This document shows positions 3,001-53,444 of a stretch of 64,000 nucleotides of DNA, in pieces; the first letter of the stretch is position 1; the number at the start of each line of letters is the position of its first letter. Origin of the DNA: Escherichia phage vB_EcoM_G17. The position numbers and the translations under genes are program-made. The notes beneath the pieces were generated by a model. The model ran no database searches. It was not told the origin of the DNA and worked only from the letters and a program-made list of their open reading frames with translations. The DNA is taken from sequence record MK327931.1. One strand, written 5' to 3'.

Positions 3001-6000
3001 AGCCATTCAAAATTACAAAAACTGGAAATAAAACATCTTCTGGTATTGATATTTGTGTGGTTGAATATATTGCACCTGAAATTTTAGGTTTAGTGTCTGG
3101 ATCTTTAAATCATAGAGCAGAACCTTGGACATATGGTGATATGGGTGACATGGAATTTACATACATGAACACTACATTGTTTGCATATGACCAAATGATG
3201 CTTTTGTATAAAGCTAAACCAGCACAATTTGCTAACTATTTCTGGGATACCCGCAACGATAACTTAAAAGAAGTATTCACTGATGGTTCACAATTCCTTT
3301 ATGGTGATACACGTAAGCGTATTAATTTTGATAAAAATACAGTAGTTCATGGTGAAAATAGCACAAGAACAATTGGTTATCAAATGTTTGTAAGTGACCA
3401 TTTGATGTATCAAAATAAAAATATTACCACCAAGTATGGGGATGTAGTTCGTTCTTCTTATATAAATGTTGGTCATAAAATTGGAGGATTTACTAAAGCA
3501 GATCAGCTAACATTCAATGCTAAATCTTTCGGTCTTATTTCACAAGAAAACCAAACCATTGGTCTTGTTCGTTCTAATAATATCCGTGATGAGCAAATGA
3601 GTGCGATCAAAATTACTTGGAATGGTAGTGCATATCAGATTGATGGATATGATCTAGTTGGTGCTAAATTTAAATATAAACTTCCAGTAAAAAATGGTAG
3701 AAAAGTAACTCTTAAATTGGAAAACCGTAATGTTGTTCATTATAATGAATGGAAGTCTGAAGCTTCAATTGAATATGGTAAAGTTTTCAATAGTTACCAA
3801 GAAGTTTATACTTTTATTTGTGGATATGGTGAATATCTTAAAGAACATGGTTGGATTTTTGAAGATGTAAATGATAGTGGTGCTCAACAAGATTGGAACA
3901 CTATTGCTAAAGATTTCGTGATCTGGAGTCAGAATTCTCTAGTAACTGGTGAATTTATTTCTTGTACCCCAAGTGCTGCAAACGCTAAATTTGGGGCAGA
4001 CTTTGGTTCAGTACAATCTATTACGCAAAATAATGGTGGTGTATGGTCATTACTTGATGATAATAACCAAGGTATTCGCCAATATGAAATTGAAACTTCT
4101 CGTATTGGAAATATCTTCACTGTTAGAACTTTAGAATCTAATAAACGCATTGCATTGATTCGTTTAAGTTTGTGTTCATATGAACATGCTGTTATTTTTG
4201 ATGATAAAACTATTTTTGGTGATTACATTTATCAGCCAACATATGGTTCTATTCAAGAACTAATTAAAATGTATGGATATATTACTGGTTCATGGACTGG
4301 TCGCCTACAAGCTCCTGGATTTATTATCTTGGAAGCTGGAACACTACCATCATTTGAAAAATTAGTGTCGGATTTCCAACATTATTATGATAGTGAAACT
4401 CCAGTAAGTGATGTACAATTACAAGAGTTGTCAAACCATTTGATTGGTTATCAATCTCGTGATTATCTACAGCGTATGATTAGTAGTGATGTTAGTCGTG
4501 TTGATTTCTATAAAGGATTCATTCACGATAAAGGTACTAACCAAGTTTTAGAACGTGTACTTCGTGTTTCTAAATCATATGACACTGATGAATATAAAGC
4601 ATTACAAGAATGGGCATTTAAAATTGGTACATATGGTAATATTGATGGTAAGAAAAACCTTCAATTTAAACTAATCAATGACCAATTTAAACAACAACCT
4701 CAAATGGTTTCTTTTGATGTAAATGCAACTTCAAATGGTAATGGTAATCATATTGTATACTTCGGTGAGCAAGGTAAAGATCCTCGTTGGATTACACGTC
4801 CAAATGGTAAGTTCTCATTCCCAATGCGTAGTGGAAGAAGTGAAAACATCCAACTTCCAGATATTGGTCCAGTAACATTGGATGAAGTATCGTACACAAC
4901 AAAAGATTTCAGTACTGCATATAATGACCGCATAACTTATACTAATGGTAAAGGTGAAAATCCTGAATCTGTGTGGATGTTTAAAGACGGTAATGGTTTG
5001 TGGAACATTTTTGAATTGGTTGATACTAATGTACAAATGGTTTCTATAACACCTATTGAAAATACCGATGTGTATGCTGAACAATTTTGTAAAGTAACTT
5101 TAACTGATAATGTACCACTTGAAGATGGTGATTATTATTATTTTGTTGATGAAACTAACTTTATGCCAGATACTTTAACAGTAGAAAGTCAATATTATAC
5201 TGCTGGTTCTGATCCTAAAGTTATGGTAGTTCCATTTGACACTTCTATTGATATTGAATTTACTGATCCAGATACACGTCCACGTTTGTATCGTTATGTA
5301 TCACGTTTTGCCAGTACTGATGATCGTCAAGCTTACATTGACAAGAAATATAGTTTTAAAGCACCACAAAGTACTTTATTTGATCGTCCAACGACATATG
5401 ATGAACGTACTAACATTACTGAGCTATATCTAAACGTTTATGACCCAATTAATGGTGTTATTCCAGGTGCGGCTATGCAAAACGTAACATATACTTCACC
5501 AGTTGATCCTGCACAGTATAATAGTAATGGAGAGTTAATCCAGGCTTGGGGTGCTGATAAAGTTGGTCAAGTATGGTGGAACACTAGCACTGCATTTTAT
5601 TTGGATTATACTCGTGCAATTTATGACGCAGACGGTAATGTTGATATTGATGCAACCAATGAATACAAACGTTACAACTGGGGCCGTTTGTTACCACATA
5701 GTACCATTGATGTGTTAGAGTGGGTTTGTTCACCAGTTGAGCCATATAACTGGGACAAATACTGTAAAGATGTTGCTAAGAAAAACAAAAATAATACTAT
5801 GTATCTACCAAGTGGAACTGCACTTGAAGATAATTATAGTACATTTTTGGAATATGATAGTTCAACTGATAGTTATGTAACAAAATACTATTTCTGGGTA
5901 CGTGATACAATTTATGTACCACCACTACATACCAGAACGAAATCATGTACTGACATTGCTCGTATTATTAAAGATCCAACACAGCTAAACATTCCTTGGT

Positions 6001-9000
6001 TCGCTCCAATAAATGAAAACTCGTTTATTCTTAGTAATATGCAATTTAAAGTGAATGATGATACCAGTATTTTAACTGTTTCTTATTACATGGATAGTAC
6101 TGAAGTTGTTAAACATGACCAGTATCAACTATGTAAAGAAGGTGACAGCTATAACTTTAACCCACTAATTTGGGATTCAATGTGGAACTCACTAATTGGT
6201 CAAGAAACAACTGAATCAGGTTCTGTGATTAATTTATTATATCCAGATGTTGATAACGGTTTAGGATCAAACAAAACTTGGTTCCAAAATGTTATAGAAG
6301 CTCGTAGAAACTTTGTAGAAAGTGCTAATAATTATTATAGGTCACAAAACATAACCACTAATAGTGTTGTTATGGAAGATGTGTTTAATGTTAAAACCAC
6401 TGAAGTTAACCCTAATGAAGTTTCTTTCCGTGTGTTGTCTTACAATAATGAATTAGTTATTGCAGTTGAAAGTGATAAATTTAAAGAAAATGACGCTGTT
6501 ATTTTAAGTACTAGTGGATATCTACCAAATCCATTAACTTCTAGTGCTGTTTATTTTATTCACTTCGACGAAAATGGATATATTCAGTTAATGAATAGTC
6601 CAGCAAACGCGGGTAGTGTTGTTACTATAACGTTAGAAAACAAAGGTGAGGGACAACATAAAATGATTAAACAATCTGATTATGTTGAATCACTAGGAAC
6701 CTCATTAGACATGACTCAGTACTGGTCATATGCTGATTGGTATGATGTTGGATATGATAGTAACACGACTTATACTCAAGAGTCAAGCTTAGAAGATGCT
6801 AATACTAAAAACTACCAAGTTGGCGATATTATCAGAGTTACCGATAGTGAAAACATTTGGACATTGTATATTAAATCACAATCACGCGATTCAATTTATT
6901 GGAAAGCGATTGGTCGTGAAAACAGTACAGTTGAACTCAATGATATGCTTTACGCAGATTATAGTGTTCATAATGATAATGGTTCACTAAGCAATCGTGA
7001 AATCAACGTTCGTAAAGCACTAGCTTTACTCAAAAATTCTTTCGATTTACATCAAAGCGAAATTGTTTTTGATATGGTCAAATATGTACATGTTGAACAA
7101 AGTGTTGTGGATTGGGTATTTAAAACATCATATATCTATATTGTTGGTTTGGAACAATCATTAGTTCAAAACTATTCAAACGATAATTTGATTAATCAAA
7201 TTGTTGAATATTTTGAAGAAGTTAAACCTTATAGAACTAAAATTCGTTCACAAATAGAGCAAAAGACATCTGATGATGATTTAATAAAAGGTCTATGTAA
7301 TGATTTAGATCCTAATGGATATATTTTCGTTGATGGTTCTTGGATCAAAACTGAAAAAGATATTTGGGATTATGAGTACGCTCAATTTAATGAAATTACC
7401 CAAAAATGGGAACAGGTAGGTTCACTACCAAGTGATTTCGTTACACCAAATAGAAGATTCCAAGAAATTGATATTATTATGCATTATGATAATATTCAGT
7501 GTAAACCAAATGAAGATTTGGCAAGCATAAATGAATTAGTAAGTGTTAATAACAAATATCAATCCAATGAAAAGGATGCTGTTAGTAACTATGAATTACA
7601 ACGTTATATATATTCTTTCCCAGAATATAGTGAAGAAACTTTCGATCTTCTTATTGCTTATCAAATGCAAATCTACTATCCAGAATTGGATGTAACACTA
7701 GGAACAGCATATGGCGTTAACCAGTGGTATAAAGACCATGCGGAAGATTTAGAAGCAACTGATGAATTCACTGCTACATTGGAACGTGTTTATAAAGAAT
7801 CAACGCATAACGATATGTTTACTGACCTTAGACAATATGTTCAGTATAACACATTGGCAAACCGTTTGAAACTTTATAAAGATATAAGTGATGAGAAAAT
7901 TCACGATGAAGTTGGATGTGGATTTAGTGGACTTACTTATAATGACAATCCTAGTACTAGACTTCCATTAGGCTTTTCTTCTAGTAATGATTATAACTAT
8001 GGATATTTTGAAATAAGCAGTGAATTGTATCAAAAATACATTTCATTAATTAAAGATAAAAATCCTGACGCATCAGACTATGAAGTAAAAGTTAAACTTG
8101 AAGTTGAGTATGGTGTATATGTTTATCGTTATGATGAAGTAGGTGGTGATACCCGTTTCTATACTGATGCTATTCACGTATTAGCAGGTATGAGAGGGTT
8201 ATTCGACAAAGACGCTACTGATAAGTACGAAAAAGCTGAAGAGATTCTTAGTAAGACCCCAATTGATATCTATGCAATTACAATGATTCCACGAAAATAT
8301 GTTTACTTAAATGTTAACGGTGTATATCAAAGTATACCTGATGAACAAAGTATTGATGATTTCATGGAAGATTATTTTATCACAAATGGTGAAATGGTTG
8401 AACTAGCTGAAATAAATCTTGATGATTTACCACTAGATCAAAATAATCCAATGTATTCTGATTATCAATATATACTTGATAGTATTACTGAAGCTAAGTA
8501 CTTCAATGATATGAATGCATTTGATAACCTAGCATTGGAATCTCAAACTTCTTCAATAAAATGGGAAGTTAAAGATGATGAAGTTGATCCTTATATTGTG
8601 GATATATCTGACATAAACCCTTCTGGGCGTGATGTAGGTCAAATTAGATTTACAGTTGATGGATATGGGTTTGACAATGTATCTCTTGTACAATTACGTG
8701 ATAACAGCAGATATCAAACTGAAGGTATGGCAATTATCAATCCATATAAACATACAGAAGCAATTGTAAGTATTCCTTCATATGCTAAGATTGAAAATGA
8801 TATTAATAAAACAACATCGAAGTTTGATGAAAAATATTTCTATCGTGTGAGATCTATTAATAGCTTAACTGAAGCAGAAATAGTTGACAATGACCTATCT
8901 GATGGTGATAAGGTGATGATTTTCACTCCTGATGGTGAAGATTTTGTGAGATATCAAAATCACACATGGGAAACAATCTTGCGTGTATCTAACATCAAAA

Positions 9001-9926
9001 ACAATACAACTCCGATCCTATTCACTGTAAGAAATACAGGTAAGGAAACGATTGAATTGATTGATGAGAGTACTGGTGCAGTTCTCCGTTATGATAACAT
9101 CACTCTTGCACAACAAAATGAGCCAGTACAGCCTCTAGCATTGAACATTGTTCGTGTTAGAACATTTGCTGACCCTGAATTTGTCAAGAATGGTATTAAA
9201 TTGTATGAACAAAATAGAAATTACACCATTGATGTAATTAATTATGATGTTTTCTACGATACTACTTTAAATGGTGGTAAGTACAATGACGGAATAACAC
9301 CAGATGACGTTGACGTTTGGATAATCTCTAATGAAATATTTGATGTTGATGGAATTACTATCGATAACGGTTATAACTTACCAATTACGGGTGCGGGAGT
9401 TCTTAGTGAATTGGCAAGAACTAAAATGACTGATAGTTTAGAAATCAACGTTATCGAATATGATTCAAGTGTTATTCAACCGTTTAGAAATAATGAAGGG
9501 ATATGGGTTTATGGATTCCCAATGGTTGACGGTATGTATATCGGTGTTGTTGGTGGTACTGTTACTAACATCACAACCATTAGTGAAGAAAATACAACCT
9601 ATGTTTCTCAACCTAAATCAATAAGTCCTTATAGTATTAGAAATAATGTTTTATCCGGTTCAGCCGCAAACATGAATGATATTATATCGATTGGATATGA
9701 AAAAGTTGAAGTTAGAAATGCAAATAATTTACTCCGTGGTGTAATGTATAGTGCAGAACATGATTTTAAACTTAATACTACATATTCTTTCAATGGAATT
9801 AATTTAGGTAATTATGATATGTTAAAACGTTACACACAAAATAGTTACACTATAGATCTTTCAGTATACACTGATAGTCTACAAGTTAGTGGTAATGATA
9901 TTAAAAATATATTATTAGTTAAGTAA
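27..9926 (+). CDS. Giant 3299-aa protein of unknown function (probable virion-associated protein); start uncertain
   Basis: Single uninterrupted 9.9-kb ORF; N/D/Y/T-rich, no motif recognised by eye. Track start is TTG; first ATG is at 39; frame is open to position 3, so the gene may begin upstream of the window. Ends at a hairpin terminator. Confidence 0.8.
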   Translation: MPEWMQGLEDIQKVSDDVIQQWFNPAENELVDGYIGDMGSPAAAGNIFLHESTVARQLYQLSTAYVSKNDDSTIRSIQFYDDLVGYMNHYGALTDNESRLFNGKFYAWTPAINPNKMNNFSSYLWDTKNSYNITSPDYIVMERGALNGNTWSLQNFWYTLGETLEDGSILTEELMQDSRFIRARAPIIEYNKNIELINYGTKFRGTVDLFSDIIKPEDIVQKDINSGIRIDGIIPQDGMRILFTSIGNNGENNRIYNVYVKKMQDGTRVYGLALDPEEETESRPSGEPQDGDVVLITKGNEYGNSSMYWNGSLWVRAQSKTSVNVFPKFQLYDRNGIKLDNSTTYPSSNFKGSELFGFKINYNYATDSVYGYNIELGDYNYYIYENFLQSQRYTYDHLGKEVEIDGLYYYNIIDENNEMNLQTDWVRSEEYSKQFVKQTPQVQRTDMYRVFSTVYDMEVFKEPVDGMYAYVIEVDRTYQYYKADRETYLDWHPITGDGVQIVKYDHTFELAQKVLDNDSDIIEVVVDGVDVSKYTKNVSKGQVQSITLDSTVELDEDSVIQIRTYSSTVTPNKELGAYEVPINLQNNPYNSNIIYINQGDYTLHFQDIIQKNITRGSSDDFNDYEERLAKGLVNNGVGTKIIQNEASMLPLMAHTANEDIDLFEATMFMQSEYFRFINKFNTQMLRMYDENPSDFLQNSAANIVDAILTTINMGRDSSFPFYYDNVGSTSGFIRAFIPPTPQFLGILQAYVPEKATFLTAGSKPSCYNISHTGIISKAYRVINGVDKMDDVVYELENRIFNSIDNKFKDVDYVPVLNSDDLFPTPYFTKTEYSAEEKQTLLLRGYINFTATNGISNSTHDYDPNNWRTWNYTGTYYVVNGQSTEIPARGSWRAIYTDQYGTYRPATHPWEMFGFTQRPTWWNQEYEPTAVQVGERDSDVVYVYEALVMNEQGDLVPSGLWDIDGTIGDSSTGTILFGDRRGQYDKYKRFGVQPFKITKTGNKTSSGIDICVVEYIAPEILGLVSGSLNHRAEPWTYGDMGDMEFTYMNTTLFAYDQMMLLYKAKPAQFANYFWDTRNDNLKEVFTDGSQFLYGDTRKRINFDKNTVVHGENSTRTIGYQMFVSDHLMYQNKNITTKYGDVVRSSYINVGHKIGGFTKADQLTFNAKSFGLISQENQTIGLVRSNNIRDEQMSAIKITWNGSAYQIDGYDLVGAKFKYKLPVKNGRKVTLKLENRNVVHYNEWKSEASIEYGKVFNSYQEVYTFICGYGEYLKEHGWIFEDVNDSGAQQDWNTIAKDFVIWSQNSLVTGEFISCTPSAANAKFGADFGSVQSITQNNGGVWSLLDDNNQGIRQYEIETSRIGNIFTVRTLESNKRIALIRLSLCSYEHAVIFDDKTIFGDYIYQPTYGSIQELIKMYGYITGSWTGRLQAPGFIILEAGTLPSFEKLVSDFQHYYDSETPVSDVQLQELSNHLIGYQSRDYLQRMISSDVSRVDFYKGFIHDKGTNQVLERVLRVSKSYDTDEYKALQEWAFKIGTYGNIDGKKNLQFKLINDQFKQQPQMVSFDVNATSNGNGNHIVYFGEQGKDPRWITRPNGKFSFPMRSGRSENIQLPDIGPVTLDEVSYTTKDFSTAYNDRITYTNGKGENPESVWMFKDGNGLWNIFELVDTNVQMVSITPIENTDVYAEQFCKVTLTDNVPLEDGDYYYFVDETNFMPDTLTVESQYYTAGSDPKVMVVPFDTSIDIEFTDPDTRPRLYRYVSRFASTDDRQAYIDKKYSFKAPQSTLFDRPTTYDERTNITELYLNVYDPINGVIPGAAMQNVTYTSPVDPAQYNSNGELIQAWGADKVGQVWWNTSTAFYLDYTRAIYDADGNVDIDATNEYKRYNWGRLLPHSTIDVLEWVCSPVEPYNWDKYCKDVAKKNKNNTMYLPSGTALEDNYSTFLEYDSSTDSYVTKYYFWVRDTIYVPPLHTRTKSCTDIARIIKDPTQLNIPWFAPINENSFILSNMQFKVNDDTSILTVSYYMDSTEVVKHDQYQLCKEGDSYNFNPLIWDSMWNSLIGQETTESGSVINLLYPDVDNGLGSNKTWFQNVIEARRNFVESANNYYRSQNITTNSVVMEDVFNVKTTEVNPNEVSFRVLSYNNELVIAVESDKFKENDAVILSTSGYLPNPLTSSAVYFIHFDENGYIQLMNSPANAGSVVTITLENKGEGQHKMIKQSDYVESLGTSLDMTQYWSYADWYDVGYDSNTTYTQESSLEDANTKNYQVGDIIRVTDSENIWTLYIKSQSRDSIYWKAIGRENSTVELNDMLYADYSVHNDNGSLSNREINVRKALALLKNSFDLHQSEIVFDMVKYVHVEQSVVDWVFKTSYIYIVGLEQSLVQNYSNDNLINQIVEYFEEVKPYRTKIRSQIEQKTSDDDLIKGLCNDLDPNGYIFVDGSWIKTEKDIWDYEYAQFNEITQKWEQVGSLPSDFVTPNRRFQEIDIIMHYDNIQCKPNEDLASINELVSVNNKYQSNEKDAVSNYELQRYIYSFPEYSEETFDLLIAYQMQIYYPELDVTLGTAYGVNQWYKDHAEDLEATDEFTATLERVYKESTHNDMFTDLRQYVQYNTLANRLKLYKDISDEKIHDEVGCGFSGLTYNDNPSTRLPLGFSSSNDYNYGYFEISSELYQKYISLIKDKNPDASDYEVKVKLEVEYGVYVYRYDEVGGDTRFYTDAIHVLAGMRGLFDKDATDKYEKAEEILSKTPIDIYAITMIPRKYVYLNVNGVYQSIPDEQSIDDFMEDYFITNGEMVELAEINLDDLPLDQNNPMYSDYQYILDSITEAKYFNDMNAFDNLALESQTSSIKWEVKDDEVDPYIVDISDINPSGRDVGQIRFTVDGYGFDNVSLVQLRDNSRYQTEGMAIINPYKHTEAIVSIPSYAKIENDINKTTSKFDEKYFYRVRSINSLTEAEIVDNDLSDGDKVMIFTPDGEDFVRYQNHTWETILRVSNIKNNTTPILFTVRNTGKETIELIDESTGAVLRYDNITLAQQNEPVQPLALNIVRVRTFADPEFVKNGIKLYEQNRNYTIDVINYDVFYDTTLNGGKYNDGITPDDVDVWIISNEIFDVDGITIDNGYNLPITGAGVLSELARTKMTDSLEINVIEYDSSVIQPFRNNEGIWVYGFPMVDGMYIGVVGGTVTNITTISEENTTYVSQPKSISPYSIRNNVLSGSAANMNDIISIGYEKVEVRNANNLLRGVMYSAEHDFKLNTTYSFNGINLGNYDMLKRYTQNSYTIDLSVYTDSLQVSGNDIKNILLVK

Positions 9927-15209: not shown

Positions 15210-15674
15210 ATGAATGAAGCGGTTGGTGCTATATTTTTATCAAAAAGTACTGGACATATGATGTTAAACTTGCGTTCTGAAAGAAGTACCTATTCTAACA
15301 ACTGGGCATTTGTTGGTGGAAAGCTTGAACATAACGAAACACCACTACAAGGTCTGATGCGAGAAATTAAAGAAGAGTTGGGCAACTCAATACCTAACAT
15401 TATTGATATTATACCGTTTGATGTATTTTGTACAAAAAATGGTAAATTTAAATATTATTCATTTGTTATTGTAGTTGAGAATGAATTTGTACCAACTTTA
15501 AATCATGAAAGCTCTGGTTATGCTTGGGTTAGAATTGGTTCTTGGCCTAAACCATTACACCCTGGTGCTAAAAATACTTTACTTAACACAAACTTAATGA
15601 AAGATTTTTACTCACTATGGGAAAGTATACGTGAAGGTACACAGTTTGTCAACAGTTTACCATATAGATATTAA
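15210..15674 (+). CDS. Nudix hydrolase
   Basis: Nudix box GGKLEHNETPLQGLMREIKEELG (Gx5Ex7REuxEExGu); AAGGAGG SD 7 nt upstream of ATG. Confidence 0.8.
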   Translation: MNEAVGAIFLSKSTGHMMLNLRSERSTYSNNWAFVGGKLEHNETPLQGLMREIKEELGNSIPNIIDIIPFDVFCTKNGKFKYYSFVIVVENEFVPTLNHESSGYAWVRIGSWPKPLHPGAKNTLLNTNLMKDFYSLWESIREGTQFVNSLPYRY

Positions 15675-30784: not shown

Positions 30785-30791
30785 TAAAAAA

Positions 30792-30820
30792 GGGAGAACT
30801 GATGTTCTCCCTTTTCGTTT
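30792..30820. terminator. Bidirectional intrinsic terminator
   Basis: GGGAGAAC-TGAT-GTTCTCCC hairpin flanked by A-run and T-run; between convergent fibre gene (+) and thyA (-). Confidence 0.65.
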
Positions 30821-31748
30821 ATACAGCCATAGGTGCTTTAATTGTTGGCATTGGGTTGTAATTCACTAATTTAAAAGAATCCATAGTGAAATCTTCAATA
30901 TTAGTAATTGTAGGATCAAGCCACAATTCAGGTAATTCACGAGGTTTTCGCTGTAGTTGTTCTTTTACTTGTTCAACGTGGTTTTTATAAATGTGACAAT
31001 CACCACCATTCCAAATAAATTCACCAACATCTAAACCAGTAATTTGTGCAATCATATGAGTTAGTAGTGAGTAACTACTGATATTAAATGGAACTCCTAA
31101 AAATAGATCAGCGGAGCGTTGATGCAGAATACAGCTTAGTTTTCCTTGCACTACACAAAATTGCACAAAGCTATGACAAGGTGGTAACGTCATATCATCA
31201 AGCTCACCAACGTTCCATGCACTTAGAATGTGGCGACGGCCATATGGATCGGACTTTATACCTTTGATTAGTTCTTGTAATTGGTCAGTTGTACGTTTCA
31301 TAACAACACCATGTGAACCAGTATAATCGATAACTTTGTATCCTTTATCTTTTAATTCTTGAATTTCTTCAGTACTGGAACTAAATTTATAATCTTCCCA
31401 TTCACGCCATTGCTTACCATACACTGGACCTAACTCACCATCAGTATAACCAAGAGCAACGCCTTGATTTAGGTAATTATCTGTCCAAATAGTTTTCTTT
31501 TCTGTATCACGAGTTCCATGCAAAATTTCACAAAGGCGACGCTCATCATGGGAACCTTCAATAAACCATAGTAATTCTGAAGTCATTGCTTTCCAAGCTA
31601 GACGTTTTGTCGTCACTGCTGGGAAACCATCTTTAAGGTCAAAACGCATTTGTTGACCGATAAGTTTGATTGTTCCAACACCAGTACGGTCAACGCTTTC
31701 TACGCCTTCATCTAGAATTTTTTGATATAGTTCTTGTAGTTGTTTCAT
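30819..31748 (-). CDS. thyA: Thymidylate synthase family (ThyA, or a dUMP/dCMP hydroxymethylase homologue)
   Basis: Hallmarks R-TGVGT, DLKDGFP, LPPCH..VQF and GVPFN-SYSLLT; contiguous, no intron; start overlaps the stop of the upstream gene (TAATG). Confidence 0.85.
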   Translation of the reverse strand: MKQLQELYQKILDEGVESVDRTGVGTIKLIGQQMRFDLKDGFPAVTTKRLAWKAMTSELLWFIEGSHDERRLCEILHGTRDTEKKTIWTDNYLNQGVALGYTDGELGPVYGKQWREWEDYKFSSSTEEIQELKDKGYKVIDYTGSHGVVMKRTTDQLQELIKGIKSDPYGRRHILSAWNVGELDDMTLPPCHSFVQFCVVQGKLSCILHQRSADLFLGVPFNISSYSLLTHMIAQITGLDVGEFIWNGGDCHIYKNHVEQVKEQLQRKPRELPELWLDPTITNIEDFTMDSFKLVNYNPMPTIKAPMAV

Positions 31749-32341
31749 TATTCTTCCTTGAAAAATGTAATAAAATGTTCCATATGTTTTTCGGTGGCAT
31801 TGCGTGAACCAATACCAGTCCAGTTACCATGTGGTGCTGGAACGACGAATGTTTGTGTGAACTCTTTCAGTACTGTATCGAAATAAAATACTGAACGTGA
31901 ATTCATATCATAACAATAAATTTCAGGATTTTCAACTGAATCCATATACATCTGTACTGCCCATGCAGTACCACCACTTACCTTAGTTGGTGATGTGATA
32001 TTTGCAATACAATATATTCTTTCTGTATTAAGTATCTGATAACTATTCCTTGCAAGTAAGTTGTAAACATAAGAACCAGGTTTTGGTACTTTTCGCTGCA
32101 ACGAGTAACATGCAATGTTTAGTTGATTTAATATAGAAATATCAGATAGAATATTGGATGGTATTTCTAATATAGTACTTTCATCTACACTATGCTCATG
32201 ACCTTTGAATGAAAAATTAATAACTTCAAATCCATTATTTTTTGCATAGATAGAAAAAAGGCGGTCAGCACCTGCTGCCCCGCCACTAAAACATACATTA
32301 GATAAACCTTTAATTGCTTCATCTAATTCATTCTTTTTCAT
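31748..32341 (-). CDS. SLOG-fold (DprA/LOG-like) protein, translationally coupled to thyA
   Basis: N-terminal SGGAAGAD motif (DprA/YpsA-like G-x-G-x-D) and later SGGTAW (LOG-like PGGxGT); assignment by motif only. Confidence 0.4.
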   Translation of the reverse strand: MKKNELDEAIKGLSNVCFSGGAAGADRLFSIYAKNNGFEVINFSFKGHEHSVDESTILEIPSNILSDISILNQLNIACYSLQRKVPKPGSYVYNLLARNSYQILNTERIYCIANITSPTKVSGGTAWAVQMYMDSVENPEIYCYDMNSRSVFYFDTVLKEFTQTFVVPAPHGNWTGIGSRNATEKHMEHFITFFKEE

Positions 32342-32344
32342 ATT

Positions 32345-33001
32345 TTATTTTGCTTTACGTTCTGCAAATAGTTGTTTTACTTTCTCAATAGCTTTAGTCT
32401 GTGAAATACCTTCTGGAATTTCTAGATAAATTGTTTTACTATCTTTCGGTTGTTCAACAACTTGTGTTTGCGGACGCAAGCTTGGCTCTAAATTGTATGC
32501 ACGTTCATAATGTTCTTTAGCCAGTTTTTCATATTTTTGTGCATCAGTGAGAAGTTGTTCTACAATAGTAGCTTCTTCTACTTTAGTGTCCGCTTCTTGT
32601 GGATTGAATGGGTTAAAGTCTTTTACTTTACCATCTTCTTGTACTTTCGCTTGATTTTCATCTAATGCTTTGTTTAGAACATCAAGAGAAATTTTATTAT
32701 TACCACCAGTGTGCATATCAATGTCACAAGTACGAACGCGACGTAGATGCTGCATGTTGTGTAGAACATCTAGCATTTTGCGTCCATCGAGATAACCAAT
32801 TTTATGCATTACTTCCCACAAATCAATATTAGATTGACCATGACCCATAACAATATCAGTTACTGCGTGAACATATGCTTCTGGTAGTGAATCACGATAA
32901 ACGATAAGGCAGTGTTCAGGATCATCTGGTAGTGAACGCCAAACAACAAAAACACGAGAACCTGTATTACGCATTACACCAACATGACGAATAGCTGCCA
33001 T
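32345..33001 (-). CDS. Hypothetical protein (218 aa)
   Basis: ORF 3 nt upstream of the SLOG gene in the same operon; no motif recognised. Confidence 0.6.
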   Translation of the reverse strand: MAAIRHVGVMRNTGSRVFVVWRSLPDDPEHCLIVYRDSLPEAYVHAVTDIVMGHGQSNIDLWEVMHKIGYLDGRKMLDVLHNMQHLRRVRTCDIDMHTGGNNKISLDVLNKALDENQAKVQEDGKVKDFNPFNPQEADTKVEEATIVEQLLTDAQKYEKLAKEHYERAYNLEPSLRPQTQVVEQPKDSKTIYLEIPEGISQTKAIEKVKQLFAERKAK

Positions 33002-33003
33002 AA

Positions 33004-33264
33004 TTATTCTCCTTTATCTTCTTGAGTTTCACTATCTTGTGATTCAGCTTCTTCTTTAGCTGCATCTTCTTGTGCTTTAATATCTTCAAGAGCTACATTT
33101 GCAAAAGAAACAAATTTAGATACAACTGGAGCAACCTCAACAAGTTCTTCAACTTTAAAGGTGTTTCGTGCAACAGCAGCTTCCATGATTTTTGCAGCAT
33201 TGATTAGGTCTAGAAGGGTTAGTTGAATTTGATTATTTTCTTGTTCCATTTTAATACTCTCCAT
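33004..33264 (-). CDS. Small acidic hypothetical protein (86 aa)
   Basis: ORF; possible TATAAT at about 33284-33289 on the minus strand upstream. Confidence 0.5.
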   Translation of the reverse strand: MESIKMEQENNQIQLTLLDLINAAKIMEAAVARNTFKVEELVEVAPVVSKFVSFANVALEDIKAQEDAAKEEAESQDSETQEDKGE

Positions 33265-33322
33265 GTATATTGGTACATTAACTATTATATCATATTTTTA
33301 TAAGTTGTCCCACTTATAAAAG

Positions 33323-33357
33323 AAGAGAACGGAAAATTCCGTTCTCTTTATTTAGTA
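33323..33357 (-). terminator. Intrinsic terminator or attenuator after the VWA gene
   Basis: GAGAACGG-AAAATT-CCGTTCTC hairpin with T-rich flank on both strands. Confidence 0.5.
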
Positions 33358-33358
33358 C

Positions 33359-34783
33359 TTAACTACGTTGACGCTTTTTATCAGCTTCATATTCGTAGTG
33401 TACAGTCTCACCAAATGGTGCAACTTTATTTGGGTTACTGTGAATCACGAACAGTGTTTTACAGTAGTTTGGATCACCCCATGACTGCCACGGTTCACCA
33501 TCAGTAAACATTACAAGCTGTTTAGGCTTGTAGTTGTCGTTCTTCATATGAACCCATACTGCTTCAAAGTCAGTACCACCACCACCTTTTACTGGATATT
33601 CCAGAATCTTACGTTCTTCGCCAGTTTTGTAATCCTTTACAGTATAAACTTCAGTATCAAAAGTCATGATACGAATCTTAAACTGTTTGAATTGTTTAGT
33701 GATGCCAAGAACTTCACTAATGAAATCACGAAGCATATCTTCAGAAATAGACCCAGAAGCATCTAGTGCAATCGCAATATCAATATCATCATCTGGTTTC
33801 ATCCCTGGGTAAATTGGATTACCATAGAATGAACCATTAGAACCAAAACCAGCACCCCATGAACGACGAGAAGGACTTTGATACGTTGCATCAGACTTCA
33901 ACCAACTACGAAGTGTACGTTGAAGTTTTGAACGCCAGTCAATCTTTGGTTCTTTAAAGTTGTTAATCATACGAGCGATTTCTGCTGGTGTACCACCTGC
34001 ACGTGCAGCATTCATCATTGCTGTTTTGAAATCATCCATATAATCACGTTTTTGCTGTTCACTTGAACCACCTTCTTGACCTTCTTGTGGAACGTCATGC
34101 TGGTCAATGGTAGTACCTTTTGGTTTACCCTTACCATCTTTAATATCGCCAAAAGTACCGCGATTTTTACCTTCACCTTCACCGCCACCACTTTGTGGTT
34201 GACCTTCACCTTCACCATCTTCTTTTTGTTCTTCTTCTTCAAGAAGAATGTAAATCTCTTCTGCGGTCATACCTTCATATTTTTTATCATACAACCATGA
34301 ACTTTGGATTTTTCCAATTTTCTCACGAACGATGATTTGGTTAATGGCATAATCCGCTGCACGGTTATAACGTTGTGGATCACGCATACCACGACGAAGG
34401 AAGTGATCGTAAGCACAGTGTAGAATTTCATGACAAATTACAGCAATAAGGTTTTCATCAGTCAAACCTTCAGTCATTTCTTTTAATTGTTCGTCTGTAA
34501 CTTCAGGATGCTTTTCACGAATAGCTTCTTCATATTCTTTCTTTTTAGATGGGTCTTGAATACCCATTACAAATTCTACGTTGTAGAATAGATGTTTACC
34601 ATCAACTGCTAGAGTACGACACCATGTATTATTAGGAACTGGACGTAAACGTGAAGCGAGTACACCAAAGAATGGTGCAGTTAACATCAAAGATGTACGA
34701 GCCAGAACCAGACGATCTTGACATTCTTTCTGGAGTGCCGGAGATACTTCATTGAATCTGGAAGTAGATTTGTTATCTGACAT
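33359..34783 (-). CDS. VWA-domain protein with N-terminal HExxH metallopeptidase-like domain (partner of MoxR-like ATPase)
   Basis: HEILH (HExxH) near residue 119; VWA MIDAS motif DIAIALDASGSIS (DxSxS); Gly/Glu-rich linker between the domains. Confidence 0.7.
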   Translation of the reverse strand: MSDNKSTSRFNEVSPALQKECQDRLVLARTSLMLTAPFFGVLASRLRPVPNNTWCRTLAVDGKHLFYNVEFVMGIQDPSKKKEYEEAIREKHPEVTDEQLKEMTEGLTDENLIAVICHEILHCAYDHFLRRGMRDPQRYNRAADYAINQIIVREKIGKIQSSWLYDKKYEGMTAEEIYILLEEEEQKEDGEGEGQPQSGGGEGEGKNRGTFGDIKDGKGKPKGTTIDQHDVPQEGQEGGSSEQQKRDYMDDFKTAMMNAARAGGTPAEIARMINNFKEPKIDWRSKLQRTLRSWLKSDATYQSPSRRSWGAGFGSNGSFYGNPIYPGMKPDDDIDIAIALDASGSISEDMLRDFISEVLGITKQFKQFKIRIMTFDTEVYTVKDYKTGEERKILEYPVKGGGGTDFEAVWVHMKNDNYKPKQLVMFTDGEPWQSWGDPNYCKTLFVIHSNPNKVAPFGETVHYEYEADKKRQRS

Positions 34784-34799
34784 GTATATTTCCTCGTTT

Positions 34800-34837
34800 A
34801 GTTAAGATAAAAGAAGGATACCATTAGGCATCCTTCT
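34800..34837 (-). terminator. Possible weak terminator or RNA hairpin between the MoxR and VWA genes
   Basis: AGAAGGAT...ATCCTTCT 8-bp stem with 10-nt loop and short U-run on the minus strand. Confidence 0.35.
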
Positions 34838-34857
34838 TGTCAACAACTCTTTGTTAA

Positions 34858-36183
34858 TTAGCCAAGAGAGCGTGCTTTACGTACAAGTTCAGAGTACTTA
34901 GCGATGAAATCTTTAAACGCTGGTACATCTTTAATGGAAATCGCAACCTTATGAAGCGTGATGGTACGAATTGCCAGTACTGCCAGTTCTGCTTGAGTTG
35001 CAGAGAAGTTATGGTCTAGGAAGGTGATGAAGTTGTTACACAGTTTACCCCATTCTTCCACTGGTAGACGTTGTTCTTGCTTCTCATTGAACAGGTCGAT
35101 AATTTTATAAACCAAGTTCAGAGTGATAAAGTAGTTCGCAGAAATATCCAGCGTTGCGTCGATTTCTTTGATTTCACCAGACAGAATAGACATAGTATCT
35201 GGTAGTTTAGCAACGTTCTCAACGTACTCAATGTATTCAGTTGCAACACCTTCACCAACACGACCAGCAATCATTGCACGGAACACTTCTTTATCAATTG
35301 TCTTAGTTTTCTTGAGATCTTCGTAGCGTGCTACTGCTTCCCATGAACGTGGAGAAGTACCACCACTGTGAGAAGGATCTTGTGGACTAAGTGTGTTAAA
35401 GTACTTAGAACCAGTGTTGTTGATGAACGCAACAGTTGCTGGGTTCAAACGTTTTGCAATCGCATAATCGTTAATCCAATCTTGATGATAAGGAATCATC
35501 TCAATGTGAGTCATACGGTCACGCAGTGGTGTAGCAAGAGAGAAAGTTACACCGCCATCAGTTTCACGGTTACCTGCTGCAAGAATCAGTGCAGTCTTAG
35601 GTAGCTTCATCTCACCAACACAACGGTCGAGGATTAGCTGATAAGACGCTGCCTGAACAATAGGCATTGCAGAGTTAATTTCGTCAAACAGAATAACACC
35701 TTTCCAATCTTCGGACAATTTCAGAACTTTAGGTGCAGCCCATACTACCGCAGTTTCAGCTACATAATCTTTTGCTTCGGCAAGCTCAGATTCTTTCAGA
35801 AGAGAACCGTCAGTTTTACGGAAAAGCTTCTCTGGTACTGGAATACCGCGAAGGTCACTTGGTTCGATTTGAGACAAACGGAAATCGATAAAGTTAGTAT
35901 CTTGGTCGATTAGTTTTGCTTCAAATGCAGCCAGTTCACGGCGTAGCTGATCAGCATTTTCAGGGTCAGCTTCGATTTGTTGTTTCATGAACTCGATTTT
36001 AGCTACGTTATCTTTACGCAGTGGGTAATTTTCATCAGCGTATTGACGAGCGATTGCAGACTTACCGATACCTGGGCTACCCCAAATCATCAGGCTATCT
36101 TGAATCATGTCAGCTAGTGCCATTGCTTCTTTAGCTTTCTTTGGAGTCAGTTTAACGTTCAGGATATCGTTTTGAGTAGTCAT
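34858..36183 (-). CDS. MoxR-like AAA+ ATPase
   Basis: Walker A GSPGIGKS, Walker B ILFDEINS; 441 aa; immediately upstream of the VWA gene, as in MoxR/VWA or CobS/CobT-like phage pairs. Confidence 0.75.
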   Translation of the reverse strand: MTTQNDILNVKLTPKKAKEAMALADMIQDSLMIWGSPGIGKSAIARQYADENYPLRKDNVAKIEFMKQQIEADPENADQLRRELAAFEAKLIDQDTNFIDFRLSQIEPSDLRGIPVPEKLFRKTDGSLLKESELAEAKDYVAETAVVWAAPKVLKLSEDWKGVILFDEINSAMPIVQAASYQLILDRCVGEMKLPKTALILAAGNRETDGGVTFSLATPLRDRMTHIEMIPYHQDWINDYAIAKRLNPATVAFINNTGSKYFNTLSPQDPSHSGGTSPRSWEAVARYEDLKKTKTIDKEVFRAMIAGRVGEGVATEYIEYVENVAKLPDTMSILSGEIKEIDATLDISANYFITLNLVYKIIDLFNEKQEQRLPVEEWGKLCNNFITFLDHNFSATQAELAVLAIRTITLHKVAISIKDVPAFKDFIAKYSELVRKARSLG

Positions 36184-40923: not shown

Positions 40924-43031
<2,108 letters not shown>

Positions 43032-52331: not shown

Positions 52332-53444
52332 TTAGAACATTTGTTTGATTGCTTCGTAACGAAGTTCACAAACAAAATCACGAATTTCTGACGTTTCAAG
52401 TTCACCATCTTTGACCATTTGCTGAATATCAGGCAATTCAACATCAGTATAACGATCATAAACTTTAATAATTAGATCTTCAAGTTCTAAATCAATTTCT
52501 TTTCGCAAAATGAAGTATTCCAAAACTTTATAAAGGAATTCTTCACCTCCGTTATTTTTAATATTCATATCCAATAAAATATTACCCATTTCAATAGGGG
52601 TCTTTTTACGGAATGTTTTGATATCATCACGGAAACGTTTGATATAATTACTAAATTTAACATACTTAACTGGAACTTTAATAGCACCGTTAAGTACTGA
52701 ATCATTATTTACTTCTTCATTTTCAAGAAGAATAGACCACAGAAAATATGGTTTATATACATCAGTACAGTTATCTGAAATATAATCAATAAGGTCTAAA
52801 TTCTTTTTGGTCAAAGATGTATTAAACACCTTTTCGTAATAACCAAATTTACTTAGCGTCTTAAGGAACTTTGAAGGCTTTTCTTCAGAAAATGATTTTT
52901 CGAATTCCACAAAAACACGGTCAGGAACAAGATGATTTAGCTCACCACTATTGACCATTCCAATAGCGAGTTCCTCAGTGCTTTCATGGATAGTAAAGTC
53001 TGAATAACGAGTAGCAAATCGAGCAAGACGTAACACGCGTAATGGATCTTCTTTAAAATGGTCAGAAACATGACGTAGTATCTTGTTCTTGATATCAGCT
53101 TTACCACCGTATGGATCGATGTGAATTTGTAGTACTGGATCATACGCAATTGCATTAATTGTAAGGTCACGGCGATACAAATCTTGTTCTAGTGTTACGC
53201 CTTTTGTATCCACTTCAAAGCCACCATATCCAGTACCAGTTTTACGCTCAGTACGGGCTAATGCGTGTTCATTACCTTCTGGACTTAGATATACTGGGAA
53301 ATCCTTACCTACTTGCTTATAGCCAATACTTTGCAAGTACTTAAGATCAGATTCGGATGCACCAACAATGACATAATCTTTGTCTTTTGCACGGATGCCC
53401 ATTAAACGGTCACGGACGTAACCGCCAACCAAATACTTTTTCAT
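52332..53444 (-). CDS. cca: tRNA nucleotidyltransferase (CCA-adding enzyme), head domain only
   Basis: N-terminus MKKYLVGGYVRDRLMG-AKDKDYV matches the class II GGxVRD...D.D head; RRDLTINAIAYD motif; 370 aa, no HD domain apparent. Confidence 0.8.
   Translation of the reverse strand: MKKYLVGGYVRDRLMGIRAKDKDYVIVGASESDLKYLQSIGYKQVGKDFPVYLSPEGNEHALARTERKTGTGYGGFEVDTKGVTLEQDLYRRDLTINAIAYDPVLQIHIDPYGGKADIKNKILRHVSDHFKEDPLRVLRLARFATRYSDFTIHESTEELAIGMVNSGELNHLVPDRVFVEFEKSFSEEKPSKFLKTLSKFGYYEKVFNTSLTKKNLDLIDYISDNCTDVYKPYFLWSILLENEEVNNDSVLNGAIKVPVKYVKFSNYIKRFRDDIKTFRKKTPIEMGNILLDMNIKNNGGEEFLYKVLEYFILRKEIDLELEDLIIKVYDRYTDVELPDIQQMVKDGELETSEIRDFVCELRYEAIKQMF

Follow-up and report, generated by a model that had tools for sequence, protein, structure and literature searches.

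Gene organization of the thyA locus

We analyzed a 64,000-nucleotide (nt) stretch of DNA from Escherichia phage vB_EcoM_G17 (MK327931.1; hereafter the window), focusing on a gene of the thymidylate synthase family (thyA, gp568) and on the gene directly upstream of it (gp567), which encodes a 197-amino-acid (aa) protein of the SLOG fold. A 2.7-kb part of the window was 100% identical to the gp566-gp568 region of phage 121Q (NC_025447, genus Asteriusvirus, 348,532 bp), and phages Sharanji, SP27, PBECO4 and others were near-identical to 121Q over the same 2.7 kb. The gene numbers gp565-gp568 used here are those of 121Q; a window coordinate w is converted to the 121Q record as 310510 - w, with a change of strand. 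Both genes are already present in the published annotated genome, in which RefSeq names gp568 'thymidylate synthase' and gp567 'DprA-like DNA recombination-mediator protein'.

At the gp567/thyA junction (AAGGAAGAATAATGAAAC), the TAA stop codon of the 197-aa open reading frame (ORF) and the ATG of thyA overlapped by the last A (GAA TAATG AAA), confirming with a single shared base the overlap described in the original prediction. An AGGAAG Shine-Dalgarno-like element was located upstream of the thyA start. Judging from the sequence, gp565, gp566, gp567 and thyA appear to form a four-gene operon lying between two terminator-like hairpins (Table 1). Terminator-like sites were more frequent than in shuffled sequence (7 observed vs 1.4 expected); the total of promoter-like matches in the region was no higher than in shuffled sequence. 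Neither gp565 nor gp566 had a Pfam or NCBIfam match, and both genes preceded the SLOG gene in 18 of 18 Rak2-like loci. A deoxynucleoside monophosphate (dNMP) kinase gene, a glutaredoxin gene and two Nudix genes, which had also been predicted in the window, were all present, with Pfam matches above the gathering scores.

Table 1. Features of the gp565-thyA unit and nucleotide-related genes elsewhere in the window (window coordinates).
Feature	Coordinates	Strand	Description
Terminator-like hairpin	33323..33348	-	3' of the upstream DUF2201 gene; sets the gp565-gp568 unit apart
Sigma-70-like promoter match	33284..33311	-	GGGACA, 16 nt, TG-n-TATAAT; 10/12 positions; between the upstream terminator and gp565; consensus match only
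gp565	33004..33264	-	Small acidic protein, 86 aa, phrog_13789; first gene of the unit; RefSeq start at 33249
gp566	32345..33001	-	218 aa, phrog_15894; adjoins the SLOG gene upstream in 18/18 Rak2-like loci
gp567	31748..32341	-	197-aa single-domain SLOG-fold protein, phrog_768; nearest to the cpYpsA/YAcAr families
thyA (gp568)	30819..31748	-	309 aa; canonical folate-dependent thymidylate synthase; PF00303
Intrinsic-terminator-like hairpin	30787..30816	-	13-bp stem followed by a T run; directly 3' of the thyA stop; end of the transcription unit
dNMP kinase (gp550)	47754..48380	-	PF21448, 44.8 bits vs 27.1; phrog_139, E 3e-50
Glutaredoxin gene	51573-51821		Pfam match above gathering score
Nudix genes	51823-52221 and 15210-15674		Pfam matches above gathering score

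Identity of the ThyA homologue

The gp568 protein matched Pfam PF00303 with an E value of 8e-102 (340 bits vs a cut-off of 24.3) and scored above both NCBIfam equivalog cut-offs (342.9 vs 327 bits for NF002497; 326.8 vs 108.35 bits for TIGR03284). Its best solved relatives were structures of E. coli ThyA (E 1e-80). In the alignment, gp568 shared 53% identity with E. coli ThyA and 50% with RB43 Td. By contrast, its identity to T4 gp42 (dCMP hydroxymethylase), to the thymidylate synthase homologue of Kuttervirus and to a metagenomic 'pyrimidine hmase' was only 24-27%. The motifs DRTG, GPVYGKQWR, LPPCH, HQRSAD, PFNI and GDCHIY aligned with the catalytic and substrate-binding residues of the E. 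coli enzyme, showing that the folate/dUMP-binding motifs noted in the original prediction are indeed canonical. Residues R21 (DRTG), the Tyr94 loop GPVYGKQWR, L143, C146-H147, R166-S167, D169, N177 and H207/Y209 were all retained; gp568 thus had the fold of E. coli ThyA and T4-type Td and all of their catalytic and substrate-binding residues. The C-terminus of gp568 was IKAPMAV, corresponding to IKAPVAI in E. coli; this tail seals the active site so that hydride transfer can take place. E. coli Trp83 was replaced by Tyr in gp568 and likewise in RB43 Td. Unlike E. coli ThyA and RB43 Td, gp568 carried a 33-aa insertion (residues 119-151; window 31296-31394; DYKFSSSTEEIQELKDKGYKVIDYTGSHGVVMKRT), at a site that we take to be that of the small-domain insertion in Lactobacillus casei thymidylate synthase.

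Phage ThyA homologues are often hydroxymethylases or hydroxylases (PMC13326640; PMC7824862), and it had been proposed for this locus that the homologue is a pyrimidine hydroxymethylase and that the SLOG protein, whose gene is translationally coupled to thyA, helps to build a hypermodified base. These enzymes belong to the same superfamily (PF00303) as gp568 and share its catalytic Cys and phosphate-binding Arg. They differ at a few discriminating positions: Leu143 keeps water out of the active site, and hydroxymethylases have Asp or Glu here, an acidic residue that admits water to the methylene intermediate; Asn177 selects dUMP, and Asp at this position goes with dCMP as the substrate; Asp169 is changed to Asn in 5-hydroxy-dCMP synthases, as reported for the enzymes of RB69 and DLP3 (PMC13326640, 2026). 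In gp568 we found Leu143 (within DDMTLPPCH) together with Asp169 and Asn177 (HQRSADLFLGVPFNI), and none of the residues typical of a hydroxymethylase or hydroxylase. Position 143 was Asp in T4 gp42 and in the Kuttervirus homologue, position 177 was Asp in T4 gp42 and in the 'pyrimidine hmase', and the IKAP(V/M)A(I/V) tail was absent from all three in the alignment. Since the three residues, the tail and the equivalog scores were all of the synthase type, gp568 is very probably a canonical ThyA that belongs to no hypermodification module, and the proposed route, in which it would be a hydroxymethylase and the SLOG protein would help to build a hypermodified base, is highly improbable.

Base composition of the phage DNA

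The gene content of 121Q was surveyed through RefSeq product names at record positions 1-249000 and 257110-348532; the segment 249001-257109 (gp518-gp538, window about 53.4-61.5 kb) lay outside this inventory. No hydroxymethylase, glycosyltransferase, 5-hydroxymethyldeoxyuridine (5-hmdU) DNA kinase or other hypermodification gene was found among the product names covered, most of which were 'hypothetical', and no companion dCTPase or dUTPase that would remove the canonical nucleotide was found among them; a MazG-like gene (gp37) was present. The annotated genes included dihydrofolate reductase (DHFR, gp42), two dCMP deaminases (gp469 and gp490), NrdAB, NrdDG, the MazG-like pyrophosphohydrolase, the dNMP kinase gp550 and two DNA methyltransferases (gp91 and gp417). 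The presence of DHFR is consistent with the predicted thymidylate synthase activity of gp568, and the presence of DHFR and the dCMP deaminases counts against the proposed hypermodification route.

Published data pointed the same way. The size of 121Q DNA in pulsed-field gel electrophoresis (PFGE), a method blind to small neutral base changes, was close to the genome length, whereas the DNAs of phages PAU and G, which are proven to be modified, were retarded (Hua et al. 2017, PMC5646251). RaK2 DNA was resistant to some restriction enzymes, an observation that could favor a modified base; however, no hydroxymethylase or glucosyltransferase homologue was reported in RaK2, and the restriction pattern was ascribed by its authors to methylation (PMC3622015). 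The data on 121Q and RaK2 therefore gave no sign of a bulky modified base. The suggestion that the phage may carry hypermodified DNA was left unsupported because ThyA was canonical and the rest of the 121Q genome fitted plain thymine, with a synthase-type ThyA, no partner enzyme among the product names covered and a normal PFGE size. Taken by itself, this ThyA gene gives no grounds for counting phage 121Q and its relatives among the phages that may hypermodify thymine or cytosine.

Fold and family of gp567

An AlphaFold2 model of gp567, computed with 107 homologues, had a mean pLDDT (predicted local distance difference test) of 97.3 and displayed a Rossmann-like three-layer fold with SLOG proteins as its structural neighbors. 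PDB entry 3imk was the best of these, followed by type-II LOG (7.6), ShosA/DprA (7.4, 7.1), YpsA (7.0) and PpnN/YgdH (7.0). A glycine-rich loop came after the first core strand and a GG loop ahead of the helix that follows a later strand, as in other SLOG proteins. These loops corresponded to SGGAAGAD (residues 19-26) and SGGTAW (residues 122-127); the conserved motifs of gp567 were SGGAxGAD, RNxxQ, GGTAWAxQ and TGIGSR. In the alignment of the 107 homologues, S19, G20, A22, G24, D26, R98, Q102, G123, T125, A128, G176, I177, G178 and R180 were invariant, and G21, A25, N99, G124, W127, Q130 and D134 were at least 90% conserved. The SLOG-type motifs that the original prediction had picked out therefore lay on invariant or nearly invariant columns, and the modeled fold agreed with them.

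Assignment to a family was made against definitions taken from Pfam names and from two surveys (Iyer et al. 2021, PMC7824862; Iyer et al. 2022, PMC9503650). The gp567 protein matched phrog_768 (E 1e-26), which is named 'DprA-like'. Against the YAcAr/DUF2493 family (PF10686) it scored 20.2 bits vs a cut-off of 28.2; weak matches to this family occurred in 67 of the 107 members (best E 4e-5), and no member was above the gathering score of either PF10686 or cpYpsA (PF12694). Single-sequence and profile searches of gp567 against solved structures returned nothing significant. The family differed from cpYpsA (3imk, a 'putative molybdenum carrier protein') and from YAcAr in falling below both gathering scores and in having its own signature elements GGTAWAxQ and LLxRNxxQ; neither of these two families has a demonstrated biochemical function. 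It also differed from the LOG/PpnN phosphoribohydrolases: PF03641 (LOG) matched neither gp567 nor any of the 107 members, and the alignment of the family profile to E. coli PpnN by hhalign was not significant (probability 0.3).

The GSR-type strand of gp567 (TGIGSR) was found at the C-terminus. In DprA and YpsA this strand opens the fold. This placement would be compatible with a circular permutant and with 3imk as the best structural match. On the basis of the model, gp567 is assigned to the YpsA/cpYpsA/YAcAr branch as a small protein of the SLOG fold with an intact and very strongly conserved glycine-rich pocket; by analogy with the superfamily, a pocket of this type would bind a nucleoside-5'-phosphate moiety. 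The protein is thus an uncharacterized member of a known superfamily. The family was large: at E<=1e-3 it comprised 2715 clusters (50% identity), and at E<=1e-30 it still comprised 665.

Gene neighborhoods of the SLOG gene

Neighborhoods were compared in 80 viral loci of 306 found, whose ORFs were searched with 121Q proteins and with kinases from loci analyzed earlier. A dNMP kinase gene was located directly upstream of the SLOG gene in 44 loci (SLOG identity 32-40%), most commonly with a 4-nt overlap at the junction, and the order was reversed in two more, giving direct kinase adjacency in 46 of 80. The kinase gene was 1.4-3.3 kb upstream in a further six loci. All kinases tested matched phrog_139 (dNMP kinase) with E values of 1e-45 to 1e-50. 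We also considered a 5-hmdU DNA kinase as the identity of the enzyme adjoining the SLOG gene and set it aside as less likely, given the matches to phrog_139 and Pfam DNMK, the two models that this comparison covered. When the SLOG proteins were clustered at 70% identity, 14 clusters had the kinase gene upstream, 2 had it downstream, 4 were adjacent to thyA, 4 had a kinase gene nearby and 10 had neither.

The thyA gene was directly downstream of the SLOG gene in 18 of the 80 loci (SLOG identity at least 49%), which came from 121Q, RaK2, GAP32, CBB, Serratia BF, Yersinia fHe-Yen9-04 and metagenomic relatives. The two genes abutted only in the 121Q-like and RaK2-like loci (-1 and +2 nt); in the other loci of this type they were separated by about 235-330 bp, and in two of the related loci (L011 and L012) the gap held an 89-aa ORF. 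As for the nucleotide module originally envisaged for the SLOG/thyA pair, the association of the SLOG gene with deoxynucleotide enzymes was recurrent, and the direct overlap with thyA did not extend beyond these two groups.

The kinase-SLOG pair was situated between a neck gene (gp13-like) and the tail-sheath gene in two different flank arrangements, indicating that the pair was kept together through rearrangements. In 121Q, the kinase gene gp550 and the tail sheath gene were immediate neighbors, and no SLOG gene intervened; in more distant relatives, the SLOG gene occupied the position between kinase and sheath. No kinase-SLOG or ThyA-SLOG fusion was seen in the 80 loci. A Pfam scan of the neighbors in loci with neither kinase nor thyA revealed no common theme (an SMC_N ATPase, a peptide deformylase, an SPFH domain and a Cpn10-like protein were among them). 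In a literature search we found no paper linking SLOG or DUF2493 with dNMP kinases, nor any description of the kinase-SLOG linkage.

Proposed role of gp567

A link of gp567 to nucleotide handling is reasonable because its gene repeatedly adjoins genes of deoxynucleotide enzymes. Among the roles considered, we favor one in the dNMP pool because the SLOG gene abutted a kinase gene in 46 of the 80 loci and thyA in 18. Whereas the gene structure, the identity of ThyA, the SLOG fold and the neighborhood counts are results of this analysis, what gp567 binds, whether it catalyzes a reaction and what it does for the phage are inferred as follows. The dCMP deaminases of the phage would supply dUMP to gp568, which would convert it to dTMP by the standard route, with the by-product dihydrofolate being recycled by the phage DHFR. 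The dTMP would then pass to the phage dNMP kinase and enter the DNA as plain thymine. The gp567 protein would bind a dNMP or a close analogue, most likely in its conserved pocket, possibly cleaving the N-glycosidic bond of this ligand. It would act at the step from dNMP to dNDP and help to control the supply of dNMPs to the kinase, either by editing the pool enzymatically or as a regulatory subunit, and would not modify bases. In the sampled loci a dNMP kinase gene was the most frequent partner of the SLOG gene; in enterobacterial phages of the Rak2-like type thyA took this place, and the kinase gene stayed beside the sheath gene. Two further observations favored the dNMP role. One 368-aa family member (P0153) carried an N-terminal histidine-phosphatase domain joined to SLOG, the only fusion identifiable among ten mid-sized candidates drawn from the top 150 family representatives; and gp567 is mildly acidic (isoelectric point (pI) 5.75; family median 6.3), which is untypical of a dedicated DNA binder. 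We consider a part for gp567 in dNMP handling, as read from gene content and context, a tentative proposal that falls somewhat short of an even chance; the combined reading, a canonical ThyA together with a SLOG protein in dNMP handling, is about evenly balanced.

A narrower form of the proposal can be drawn by analogy. Phage dNMP kinases trigger Kongming immunity via dITP, and T5 Dmp counters this defense by depleting dAMP (bioRxiv 10.1101/2024.12.20.629578). As a dNMP-directed accessory gene that travels with a phage dNMP kinase, the T5 dmp gene resembles what we propose for the SLOG gene; however, both the phosphatase activity of Dmp and its action against Kongming are proven, and for the SLOG protein the likeness is an analogy only. 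By this analogy, gp567 might be a SLOG-fold editor of the dNMP pool that works as an N-glycosidase or by tight binding, so that dangerous or non-canonical dNMPs such as dIMP are removed before a promiscuous kinase acts on them. This version is speculative and rather improbable. If it were true, the SLOG editor would protect the phage against defenses that turn its own dNMP kinase to their use, such as Kongming via dITP, in the manner of T5 Dmp or human DNPH1. Proteins of the gp567 type are worth a binding screen because their partner kinases trigger Kongming and dNMP-depleting enzymes counter it; a large uncharacterized SLOG family with conserved kinase adjacency is, in this respect, a modest but testable lead.

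Evidence against the dNMP role and alternative functions

Several observations weighed against a role of gp567 in the dNMP pool, and some of them favored other explanations. Family members also occurred in quite different genomic and domain settings, detailed below. In the motif SGGTAWAVQ, Gln130 occupied the position of the catalytic Glu of LOG (PGGxGTxxE) when the GG dipeptides were aligned by eye, and LOG-type hydrolysis by gp567 is doubtful because of this replacement. In 10 of the 80 loci, the 6 kb on either side of the SLOG gene held neither a kinase gene nor thyA. Further, the kinase-linked loci all came from one broad lineage of large phages with homologous sheath and neck genes, so that the linkage may represent a single inherited arrangement, and the adjacency to thyA lay inside a fully syntenic block (ATPase - DUF2201 - gp565 - gp566 - SLOG - thyA) common to all 18 thyA-linked loci.

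These last points would be explained if the SLOG gene were a small accessory gene inherited in collinear genomes, its neighbors reflecting ancestry and having no functional meaning. The clustering at 50% identity agrees with this, since the 80 loci collapsed to 12 clusters, 7 of which had neither neighbor. However, the pair survived two flank arrangements and one reversal of order, and its junctions were mostly overlaps of 1-4 nt despite a SLOG identity of 32-40%. A dNMP enzyme was beside the SLOG gene in both the kinase and the thyA arrangements, whichever is older, and a rough estimate of the chance that the gene would land by one of about 12 nucleotide-metabolism genes among about 600 was 4-5%. 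We therefore regard adjacency without functional meaning as distinctly unlikely.

The processing of ADP-ribose-derived signals and DprA-like DNA binding are live rivals to the dNMP role. In the first, gp567 would be a counter-defense protein that senses or degrades signals derived from NAD+ or ADP-ribose (isomers of cyclic ADP-ribose and others), and its proximity to thyA and the kinase gene would be incidental. Viral SLOG proteins are mostly YpsA-like and predicted to sense or degrade ADP-ribose-derived immune signals; their genes co-occur with those of Macro, NADAR and Nudix proteins and often lie among morphogenesis genes (Iyer et al. 2022, PMC9503650). In our data, a NADAR domain came right after the SLOG domain (profile E 9e-50) in a 2942-aa protein (P0216), one of two giant proteins scanned. 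The SLOG domain was also present in crAss-like giant proteins and a helicase in a viral structure library, and in the 70-kb Klebsiella phage Pylas (MH899585) tblastn located it at 42467-42958, where the annotated gene is named 'RNA polymerase'. Giant proteins of this kind are likely injected with the DNA, and the Pylas protein is presumably an N4-like virion RNA polymerase. In addition, 121Q had a macro-annotated gene (without a Pfam match) and a NudE-type Nudix gene within about 4 kb of the kinase gene, with Sir2 and Nudix genes elsewhere, and in one locus (L101) a Nudix gene was directly 3' of the SLOG gene. Nevertheless, within 6 kb of the SLOG gene Macro was detected in 0 and Nudix in 1 of the 80 loci (single-sequence phmmer, E<1e-4, which divergent copies may escape), and a dNMP kinase gene or thyA abutted the SLOG gene in 64 of them. 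Processing of ADP-ribose-derived signals by gp567 is thus a minority prospect, somewhat unlikely on present evidence.

The second rival follows the RefSeq and PHROGs names, in which gp567 would be a DprA-like single-stranded DNA (ssDNA)-binding or recombination-mediator protein. DprA/SLOG proteins have been suggested as extra ssDNA binders in jumbo phages (Iyer et al. 2021, PMC7824862). Relatives were encoded in 52 cellular loci, and in seven Flavobacterium/Paenimyroides loci (L108, L112, L115, L117, L122, L125 and L126; about 5000-9100) an ORF of about 300 aa was 3' of the SLOG gene. The three of these ORFs that were scanned (L112, L117 and L122) all encoded a WYL-WCX regulator. L112 additionally had a MiaB-like radical-SAM gene on the upstream side and a gene for a type IA DNA topoisomerase on the downstream side, and the Flavobacteriaceae loci resemble neighborhoods of the dprA-topA type. 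In the T4-like Caulobacter phage Cr30 (L071, 4288-7055), the SLOG gene began one base after a gene for an SMC_N-domain ATPase (RecF/RecN/SMC), which is probably gp46/Rad50-like, and was followed by a peptide deformylase gene. Some SLOG contexts echo those of DprA because E. coli smf (dprA) adjoins def and smg-yrdD. We also take the order of the gp567 motifs, SGxAxGxD ... RN ... SG(G/S), to be collinear with those of DprA.

Family-level tests weighed against the DprA assignment. The DprA family PF02481 was touched by 7 of the 107 members, with a best E value of 0.006, and all were below the gathering score. The hhalign comparison with E. coli Smf was not significant (probability 0.1), its only local match pairing LLARN with FPRRNR. 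With a single 197-aa domain, gp567 is too short to hold the flanking domains of DprA (SAM-like and C-terminal), which serve dimerization and RecA contact. It also differed from DprA/Smf in its acidity, a weak argument, and in belonging to a phage that already encodes UvsX/RecA and UvsY. The RefSeq name 'DprA-like recombination mediator' was backed by none of the family tests run here, and a DprA-like function of gp567 is unlikely.

Additional observations

In some kinase-linked SLOG homologues the C-terminus was extended by about 100 aa of conserved sequence, HP(I/L)VE.P..GDIIY(V/I) ... GGWATV, with no Pfam match (L008, 6001-6915; L009, 6001-6831; P0072, P0084, P0093 and P0096). The SLOG domain also occurred in two further giant proteins, P0215 (3411 aa) and P0247 (4050 aa).

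Upstream of the gp565-thyA unit, the product of gp564 (window 33359-36183) matched the DUF2201 metallopeptidase-like domain and a VWA-like domain in Pfam. RefSeq and PHROGs name it 'HNH endonuclease', a name that looks wrong from these domain matches. The gene adjoins gp563, which encodes an AAA ATPase, and the gp563/gp564 pair was conserved upstream of the SLOG-thyA unit. The gp544 gene (window 50516-50992) is annotated in RefSeq as a macro-domain protein (Appr-1''-p processing) and had no Pfam match at E<=0.001. It clustered near the neck gene with the NudE-type Nudix gene, the glutaredoxin gene and a gene resembling that of CCA-adding enzyme (52332-53444).

The Nudix ORF at 15210-15674 was off by one base from gp578 of NC_025447 when coordinates were anchored at 30.7 kb; at least one insertion or deletion therefore separates the window from the RefSeq record between about 15.7 and 30.7 kb. 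Outside the window, positions 117089-131255 of the 121Q record (L001) held an unusually large array of about 12 paralogous RCC1-like 'regulator of chromosome condensation' genes.

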